From assembly GCF_056712565.1 (NCBI RefSeq), contig NZ_CM160072.1: DNA of 64,000 nucleotides; one strand, 5' to 3'. Below, piece after piece: positions 43,061 to 43,345 of this stretch. A program made the position numbers and the translations under genes. The first letter of the stretch is position 1; every line of letters begins with the position of its first letter. The notes below the pieces were generated by a model. The model had not been told where the DNA came from, did no database searches, and worked only from the letters and a program-made list of their open reading frames with translations.

Positions 43061-43345
43061 ATGCCTTTAGCAGCCAAACTTACCGACAAAGGCACCCAGC
43101 ACGACGGTTATTACGAGACCGTCATCACCGCCGGGTCATCCACCGTTTTTATCGATGGTCTCCCCGCAGCCCGTCAGGGAGATCCGCTGACGCCGCATGC
43201 TAAACCGAAGCATCCACCTCATCCCCGAAAAATCGCCAGAGGCTCGTCAACCGTCTTTATTGACGGCCTGCCCGCCGCCAGAACCGGTGATGCTATTGAC
43301 TGCGGCGGCGTGGTTATTGGTGGCGGCACGGTAAATATAGGCTGA
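43061..43345 (+). CDS. PAAR-domain protein (T6SS spike tip)
   Basis: 94 aa ORF with strong RBS (aggagg); contains the literal PAAR motif twice (GSSTVFIDGLPAARQGD and GSSTVFIDGLPAARTGD); immediately upstream of vgrG. Confidence 0.8.
   Translation: MPLAAKLTDKGTQHDGYYETVITAGSSTVFIDGLPAARQGDPLTPHAKPKHPPHPRKIARGSSTVFIDGLPAARTGDAIDCGGVVIGGGTVNIG

Follow-up and report, generated by a model that had tools for sequence, protein, structure and literature searches.

A small gene directly upstream of vgrG encodes a PAAR protein in which two almost identical segments are separated by a conspicuous proline- and histidine-rich stretch. [quoted passage not shown] The gene occupies nucleotides 43061 to 43345 (plus strand) of the 64,000-nucleotide stretch of contig NZ_CM160072.1 analyzed here (the window). 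Taken as a whole, the data are best explained, with high confidence, by a PAAR tip cone in which the stretch is the second β-hairpin, the gene standing at the head of a PAAR-vgrG-toxin-immunity operon that is probably controlled by RfaH and H-NS.

The PAAR protein, its fold, and its probable metal site

The open reading frame is preceded by a Shine-Dalgarno sequence (AGGAGG, 43051 to 43056, plus strand), read from the sequence and ending 4 nt 5′ of the ATG, and its product is a 94-residue orphan (class 1) T6SS spike-tip protein, as indicated by PDB, profile, and structure matches. It is an ortholog, or allele, of c1882 from Escherichia coli CFT073, with 91 of 93 residues identical to chain D of PDB 4JIW (E=3e-58), an entry whose title in the Foldseek library is 'c1882 PAAR-repeat protein from Escherichia coli in complex with a VgrG-like beta-helix'. 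The two substitutions are G40 (E in 4JIW) and A47 (D in 4JIW). ATCC 25922 and CFT073 carry, at the same locus, an allele equal to the crystallized sequence, and on comparison of these alleles the differences at positions 40 and 47 are natural allelic variation. Similarity extends to VCA0105 of Vibrio cholerae (4JIV; E=8e-33) and to gp5.4 of phage T4 (E=3e-7). NF033420 (T6SS_PAAR_dom), an NCBIfam equivalog model of 94 positions, matched with 157.8 bits (cutoff 124), residues 1 to 94 aligning without indels to profile positions 1 to 94 of 94, and Pfam PF05488 (PAAR_motif) matched with 74.4 bits (cutoff 27). RefSeq names the same reading frame 'type VI secretion system PAAR protein'. The sequence-only reading had proposed a minimal PAAR protein directly 5′ of vgrG; the profile, PDB, and Foldseek matches bear this out, the protein being an orphan lacking any extension, and the 94-residue frame with its two near-identical segments and intervening stretch is exactly as that reading described. 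Two minus-strand frames that overlap the gene (42940 to 43095 and 43219 to 43419) were unsupported and were set aside. The PAAR frame was found in 688 of 5426 complete E. coli genomes, with at least 95% identity in all except one, and has a GC content of 57.5%, compared with 50.2% for the whole window.

The gene, the fold, the metal site, and the role on the VgrG spike are already known. Shneider and colleagues (2013, Nature 500:350) reportedly established the last three, and the protein family itself, with the c1882 PAAR structure (4JIW). For the protein encoded in the window, binding to the distal end of VgrG and use by a T6SS are predicted from the presence of vgrG 18 nt downstream and from the 98%-identical crystallized allele, and its function in this strain, together with the T6SS that would use the spike, is presumed. 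No core T6SS genes were found in the annotation of window positions 1 to 53400.

The conical fold, for which structure prediction had been proposed as a check, was recovered as a normal cone of three β-hairpins. An AlphaFold2 model built from an alignment of 32 homologs (including sequences from Salmonella, Citrobacter, Enterobacter, Yersinia, Photobacterium, Vibrio, Aeromonas, and one Halodesulfovibrio metagenome bin) reached a pLDDT of 95.6 and a pTM of 0.85. In Foldseek, the model matched 4jiw_D with a TM score of 0.98 and an rmsd of 0.5 Å, 4jiv_D with a TM score of 0.95, and 4ku0_D (T4 gp5.4) with a TM score of 0.88. An earlier prediction from seven near-identical E. coli alleles gave a pLDDT of 33.8; it was uninformative and is not counted against the fold.

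In the PAAR fold as described, three unequal hairpins are wrapped into a tapered cone, and three His and one Cys form a tetrahedral site that joins their tips (PMC12407873). Metal binding has been reported for c1882, VCA0105, and the PAAR protein of enteroaggregative E. coli (EAEC), PAAR caps VgrG and requires its own Zn ligands (PMC10715212), and in c1882, according to a study of prePAAR, the first Zn ligand is H14. H14, H46, H54, and C81 are invariant in all 32 homologs, which are 54 to 88% identical. H46, H54, and C81 are assigned as metal ligands because of this invariance, so that the tip site would comprise H14 from hairpin 1, H46 and H54 from hairpin 2, and C81 from hairpin 3. H51 was considered as a primary ligand, as suggested by the C41/H46 spacing in EAEC PAAR; it is kept in 27 of the 32 homologs and replaced in five, whereas H54 is invariant, and we infer from this that H51 is not the primary ligand. 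The 94 residues would then be laid out as three pseudo-repeats, in each of which a strand and a PAAR-type crossover motif precede a β-hairpin. The hairpins, of 15, 19, and 9 residues, would by their unequal lengths taper the protein to a point, the three crossover motifs would give the monomer a local threefold symmetry matching that of the VgrG trimer, and a single metal ion would hold the point of the cone through the four ligands.

Comparison with known PAAR proteins supports the same arrangement. VCA0105 (4JIV) and T4 gp5.4 (4KU0) are 63% and 28% identical to the window protein, respectively, and share with it the conical three-hairpin fold and the PAAR-type crossover motifs; their His/His/His/Cys positions align with those of the window protein, including the ones in residues 42 to 60. 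T4 gp5.4 differs in that its metal is iron and the spike it caps is that of a phage (PMC12407873). The EAEC Sci-1 PAAR protein EC042_4537 (88 residues; PMC10715212) belongs to a different subfamily with two Cys and two His (H14, C41, H46, and C74) and a shorter hairpin 2, and its gene lies within a core T6SS cluster, unlike the orphan vgrG island of the window.

The leader, the probable transcription unit, and the putative cargo

A leader of 540 nt (42521 to 43060, plus strand) extends from the yncG pseudogene to the PAAR start codon, and the long AT-rich leader seen by the sequence-only reading is real, with 33.5% GC against 57.5% in the reading frame. It is present at full length in 686 E. 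coli genomes, nearly as many as have the PAAR gene (688), and is collinear with the leader of CFT073 c1882 at approximately 98% column identity. Within it, on the non-template (plus) strand at 42748 to 42759 and 313 nt upstream of the PAAR ATG, is an ops element, GGCGGTAGCGTA, the loading site of RfaH. It matches 11 of the 12 positions of the consensus GGCGGTAGCGTG, differing in its last base (A, where the consensus has G), and is GGCGGTAGnnTG-like. The CFT073 and O145 leaders carry it unchanged. It also forms the end of a JUMPstart-like element at 42722 to 42759 (plus strand). An Rfam search of the leader at gathering thresholds returned nothing, and a relaxed search aligned RF01707 (JUMPstart) over positions 1 to 38 of 38 with 19.8 bits, below the gathering score of 35 (E=0.18). 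Both conserved JUMPstart halves, CAGTGC and GGGCGGTAGCGT, are present in the leader; the match was accepted because the site corresponds exactly to the published CFT073 ops, and not on its score.

Control of the orthologous operon by RfaH and H-NS was already published in 2022. Hustmyer et al. listed eight loci of CFT073 as bound by RfaH, one of them c1882-c1889, and all with an ops in the non-template strand of the 5′ leader and with H-NS bound nearby; their Data set S2 places an identical ops, GGCGGTAGCGTA, at CFT073 positions 1715753-1715764, −313 from c1882 (PMC9765446). In that study, the c1882 locus was silenced by H-NS and transcriptionally silent in rich medium, and both the RfaH ChIP-seq signal over c1882-c1888 and a σ70 peak upstream of c1882 were seen only in an hns stpA double mutant (PMC9765446). 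The window locus resembles such H-NS-silenced RfaH/ops operons in its ops 12-mer on the non-template strand, its long leader, and its horizontally acquired AT-rich operon. By analogy, transcription would start in the AT-rich, H-NS-silenced leader, where promoter-like sites lie upstream of ops, for example at 42642-42669 and 42688-42717, and RNA polymerase would pick up the antiterminator RfaH at ops and so transcribe the AT-rich cargo genes to their end, so that silencing by H-NS is probably countered by RfaH antitermination at the window operon as well. A conserved promoter immediately next to the PAAR gene was considered and rejected: the 111 nt upstream of the gene are identical at only 67/113 positions to the sequence preceding the second PAAR gene of ATCC 25922, and a search for σ70-like sites found none from 42897 to 43060.

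Three further genes follow head to tail on the same strand. vgrG (43364 to 45769, plus strand; PF05954, PF04717, and PF22178) begins 18 nt past the PAAR stop, with GAGAGG at 43353-43358, and encodes an 801-residue spike that is gp27/gp5-like, has an acidic, Gly-rich linker, and ends in a domain of approximately 75 residues. VgrG scored 601.9 bits against TIGR03361 and matched PDB VgrG structures with E=2e-86; Pfam found no match in its C-terminal 159 residues. The next gene (45759 to 46520, plus strand; 32.7% GC) overlaps vgrG by 11 nt and encodes a putative cargo toxin of 253 residues from the RefSeq start, metallopeptidase-like with an HEMSH motif and named 'peptidase M35' by RefSeq; its Pfam match to Aspzincin_M35 is weak (E=0.002, 19 bits, cutoff 30). 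Periplasm-dependent toxicity has been described for an 'M35-peptidase' from such a module, a possible counterpart of the window protein, in a paper on an O2:K1 strain. After a gap of 52 nt comes the gene for a putative immunity protein (46573 to 47292, plus strand; 239 residues, 27.4% GC), which has a hydrophobic N terminus and owes its proposed role to its position. NCBIfam gave no match for either the putative toxin or the putative immunity protein.

From this arrangement, the PAAR, spike, and cargo genes very probably form one transcription unit, as the sequence-only reading had suggested. The alternative, in which PAAR is expressed apart from vgrG and the cargo (under a promoter and terminator of its own, or with an internal promoter serving vgrG) and the module is a mere neighborhood, is unlikely. 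Promoter-like hexamers do occur within the cluster, for example at 45909-45938 and 46243-46271, but the 19 promoter-like sites counted are only modestly above the shuffled expectation of 12 ± 3.5. The sharp change in GC, from 57% in vgrG to 27 to 33% in the cargo genes, suggests separately acquired pieces, and gene order is not fixed: in strain MFDS1022581, a toxin-immunity pair stands between one PAAR gene and the next vgrG. Against separate expression stand the 18-nt interval between PAAR and vgrG, which contains the ribosome-binding site of vgrG itself, the overlap of vgrG with the toxin gene, and the junctions of the module genes, at which no terminator-like sites were found. The CFT073 data point the same way, since RfaH, which travels with the elongating polymerase from ops, bound from c1882 through c1888 in the orthologous locus.

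It is very unlikely that, within this module, the PAAR protein serves as the cargo adaptor, with the M35-like toxin riding on it and the surface of hairpin 2 doubling as a docking site. In some systems, a role as effector 'sorting' elements has been ascribed to PAAR proteins (PMC7376260), and no recognizable adaptor gene (DUF4123, DUF2169, or DUF1795) lies between vgrG and the toxin gene. However, the PAAR protein has no extension domain, and the extra C-terminal domain of VgrG itself is the more usual cargo binder, as in EAEC VgrG1-Tle1 (PMC10715212). PAAR proteins 94 to 100% identical to that of the window also head modules with DUF4123-dependent effectors, Tae4, or an M23 peptidase; because the same PAAR protein heads modules with such varied cargo, it is better regarded as a generic tip than as a cargo-specific adaptor.

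The PAAR repeats and the Pro/His-rich stretch

The two segments that flank the stretch are PAAR repeat 1 (GSSTVFIDGLPAARQGD, residues 25 to 41; 43133 to 43183, plus strand) and PAAR repeat 2 (GSSTVFIDGLPAARTGD, residues 61 to 77; 43241 to 43291, plus strand), each with a canonical LPAAR motif (residues 34 to 38 and 70 to 74). They have 16 of 17 residues in common; at the DNA level, only 36 of 51 nt are identical, and the codons differ at 11 of the 16 positions where the residue is the same. These differences point to an ancient duplication, and the similarity of the repeats, judged from their codons, is maintained at the protein level and is not the product of recent duplication, gene conversion, or a scar. 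Their identity is the highest among the 32 homologs (range 6-16), a minor curiosity. A third copy is circularly permuted, made up of the C-terminal GGGTVNIG and the N-terminal MPLAAKLTD in register with repeats 1 and 2; it has 7 of 17 residues identical and retains AA[RK]xxD. A cyclically permuted PAAR element has likewise been noted for gp5.4 (PMC12407873). The duplicated motif of the sequence-only reading is therefore correct as to the two segments, but what they belong to is the repeat that defines the family, and its copies number three, not two.

The stretch between repeats 1 and 2, the so-called insert (PLTPHAKPKHPPHPRKIAR, residues 42 to 60; 43184 to 43240, plus strand), contains six Pro, three His, and four Lys or Arg among its 19 residues. 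In the AlphaFold2 model, it forms strands at residues 42 to 48 and 51 to 58, with a pLDDT of approximately 96 over the block. Alignment with other PAAR proteins, which had been suggested as a check, showed that the segment is common to all 32 homologs, at 19 residues in 30 of them and 20 in the other two. L43, H46, and H54 are invariant, and K48, P49, P52, R56, and I58 are conserved in at least 90% of the 32. Mean column conservation is 0.77 across the stretch, compared with 0.78 and 0.81 for the PAAR repeats and 0.75 for the whole protein. The stretch is also conserved in V. cholerae VCA0105 (GDPLAPHDKPKHPSHGR) and can be aligned to T4 gp5.4. By the model, the Pro/His-rich stretch is hairpin 2 of the cone. 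Neither of the other hairpins is as long, and two of the four probable metal positions, H46 and H54, lie on it.

Neither form of the earlier proposal for this stretch withstands these results: an insert or optional surface loop is contradicted by the indel-free match to the 94 positions of NF033420, the near-constant length, and the confidently modeled hairpin, and a recombination scar by the constant length across homologs and the strong DNA divergence of the flanking repeats. A lineage-specific insertion or scar between two PAAR copies, forming an optional loop on a two-motif core, would suit the odd composition of the stretch and its placement exactly between near-identical segments, but it retains next to no credence, given the equal length in 30 of 32 homologs over several orders with three invariant residues, the place of the stretch within the family profile and its retention in VCA0105 and alignability to gp5.4, the agreement of the modeled hairpin with the crystal structure, and flanking repeats that, at 71% DNA identity with 11 synonymous codon differences, argue against recent duplication or conversion. 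The value of the analysis lies in correcting this reading: hairpin 2, however conspicuous its Pro and His residues, should not be taken for an insertion.

Possible module recombination between yncG and yddH

The locus, in an ST95-type E. coli, is bounded by the yncG pseudogene on one side and by yddH/nhoA on the other, and the 4.8-kb segment comprising the leader and four genes is 100% identical to that of APEC O1, S88, ATCC 11775, and other phylogroup-B2/ST95-type genomes. A left-end fragment of ISAs1/ISEc1 (H-repeat), which includes the first 10 nt of the transposase reading frame (ATG at 42911), lies between ops and the PAAR gene (42766 to 42920, plus strand) and is 86 to 91% identical to ISAs1 left ends of E. 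coli TG1. This end fragment between ops and the first gene distinguishes the locus from other RfaH/ops operons (PMC9765446), as does its cryptic state in rich medium, seen in CFT073. Two more ISAs1 fragments lie 3′ of the immunity gene (47399 to 47627, plus strand), one from the left end (47399-47462) and one internal (47466-47627), as identified by blastn against the TG1 ISAs1 copies; RefSeq annotates this region as 'ISAs1 family transposase, incomplete'. IS fragments thus bracket the PAAR-vgrG-toxin-immunity module.

The window PAAR gene resembles CFT073 c1882 in locus (yncG to yddH), length, leader, ops, and position 5′ of vgrG. CFT073 and ATCC 25922 carry two tandem modules there, PAAR-VgrG(652 residues)-DUF4123-effector-immunity followed by PAAR-VgrG(801 residues)-M35 and further genes, which in CFT073 correspond to c1882-c1886 and c1887-c1889+, whereas the window has one module, whose head appears to be of the c1882 type at its 5′ end and of the c1887/c1888 type at its 3′ end. 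Up to nucleotide 43174, the PAAR gene agrees with c1882 at 27 of 28 informative sites, and from 43179 onward it matches c1887, so that the switch falls at codons 38 to 40, just before hairpin 2. vgrG is mosaic to approximately 43800 and of the second (c1888) type thereafter. The PAAR-vgrG head therefore has the appearance of a c1882/c1887-type chimera, with the PAAR product intact. Read from these sites, the chimeric head fits the gain or loss of a whole module through homologous recombination in the conserved PAAR-vgrG head. We tentatively propose that the PAAR reading frame and the first ~0.7 kb of vgrG may act as a recombination 'handle' by which whole modules are added or deleted here, an idea we hold with somewhat more doubt than conviction. 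A module recombined in behind the single ops-bearing leader would therefore come under RfaH/H-NS control.

ATCC 25922 lacks any nucleotide match to the putative toxin gene of the window, yet it has the presumed immunity gene as an extra downstream gene, 99.8% identical. The IS fragments, the chimeric head, and the occurrence of the immunity gene in toxin-less strains may help studies of T6SS cassette shuffling in E. coli.

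The leader of the PAAR gene and its ops site

The AT-rich leader of the PAAR gene contains a JUMPstart-like element (42722-42759, + strand) that scored 19.8 bits in Rfam, below the threshold of 35, and that carries the ops site GGCGGTAGCGTA at its 3′ end (42748-42759, + strand). This site is the same in sequence, and lies at the same distance (-313), as the published RfaH-bound ops of c1882, the orthologous gene in CFT073 (PMC9765446). Directly 5′ of the leader lies yncG (41920-42520), which belongs to the glutathione S-transferase family; in this lineage a frameshift has turned the gene into a pseudogene, present in the window as two ORFs. 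Enterobacterial T6SS clusters were described in a 2025 preprint as containing ops elements; consistent with that description, a second ops-like site, GGGCGGTAGCGTA, was seen in the hcp-tssI (vgrG) intergenic region of the T6SS cluster of E. coli MFDS1022581 (positions 255-266 of locus sequence L002).

A PAAR-vgrG head of probably chimeric sequence

The window sequence 43061-44900 was compared with both modules of the tandem pair in ATCC 25922 (locus sequence L007, 13001-14809 and 18839-20780). Relative to these modules, PAAR-vgrG is of the c1882 type through nucleotide 43174 and of the c1887/c1888 type starting at nucleotide 43179, and a mosaic stretch inside vgrG extends to about 43800. From this alignment, the single PAAR-vgrG head of the window looks like a chimera relative to the tandem modules of ATCC 25922 and CFT073. 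The whole PAAR-vgrG-toxin-immunity module is flanked on both sides by ISAs1/ISEc1 (H-repeat) fragments: a left end including the transposase ATG between ops and PAAR (42766-42920), and a second left-end piece with an internal piece downstream of the immunity gene (47399-47627).

VgrG C terminus, putative cargo toxin and putative immunity gene

Past its β-helix, VgrG residues ~643-801 (45290-45769) comprise an acidic linker rich in Gly, Asp and Glu and a ~75-residue C-terminal domain; a Pfam search of residues ~643-801 gave no match, and the C-terminal domain is a candidate cargo-binding domain. The cargo gene (45759-46520), named "peptidase M35" in RefSeq, encodes a HEMSH motif and gave sub-threshold Pfam matches to Aspzincin_M35 (E=0.002) and Peptidase_M91 (E=0.014) and no match in an NCBIfam search. 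For a comparable module in an O2:K1 strain, an M35-peptidase has been reported to be toxic in a periplasm-dependent manner (PMC7904677). GC content is 27-33% in the cargo gene and the next gene versus 57% in PAAR and vgrG.

Comparison of window positions 46561-48300 with L007 (23319-25058) revealed an extra gene in ATCC 25922, with 99.8% identity to the putative immunity gene (46573-47292) and located downstream of an M35 toxin/immunity pair that differs from that of the window. No nucleotide match to the window toxin gene (45683-46560) was found in ATCC 25922. Given this arrangement and the absent toxin match, the extra gene looks like a putative orphan immunity gene.

Other elements in the window

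Gathering-level Rfam matches identified the sRNA RydC with 90.5 bits (12587-12650, - strand) and, with 84.3 bits, the selenocysteine insertion element SECIS_3 (60985-61043, + strand), which synteny with CFT073 suggests is located within fdnG.
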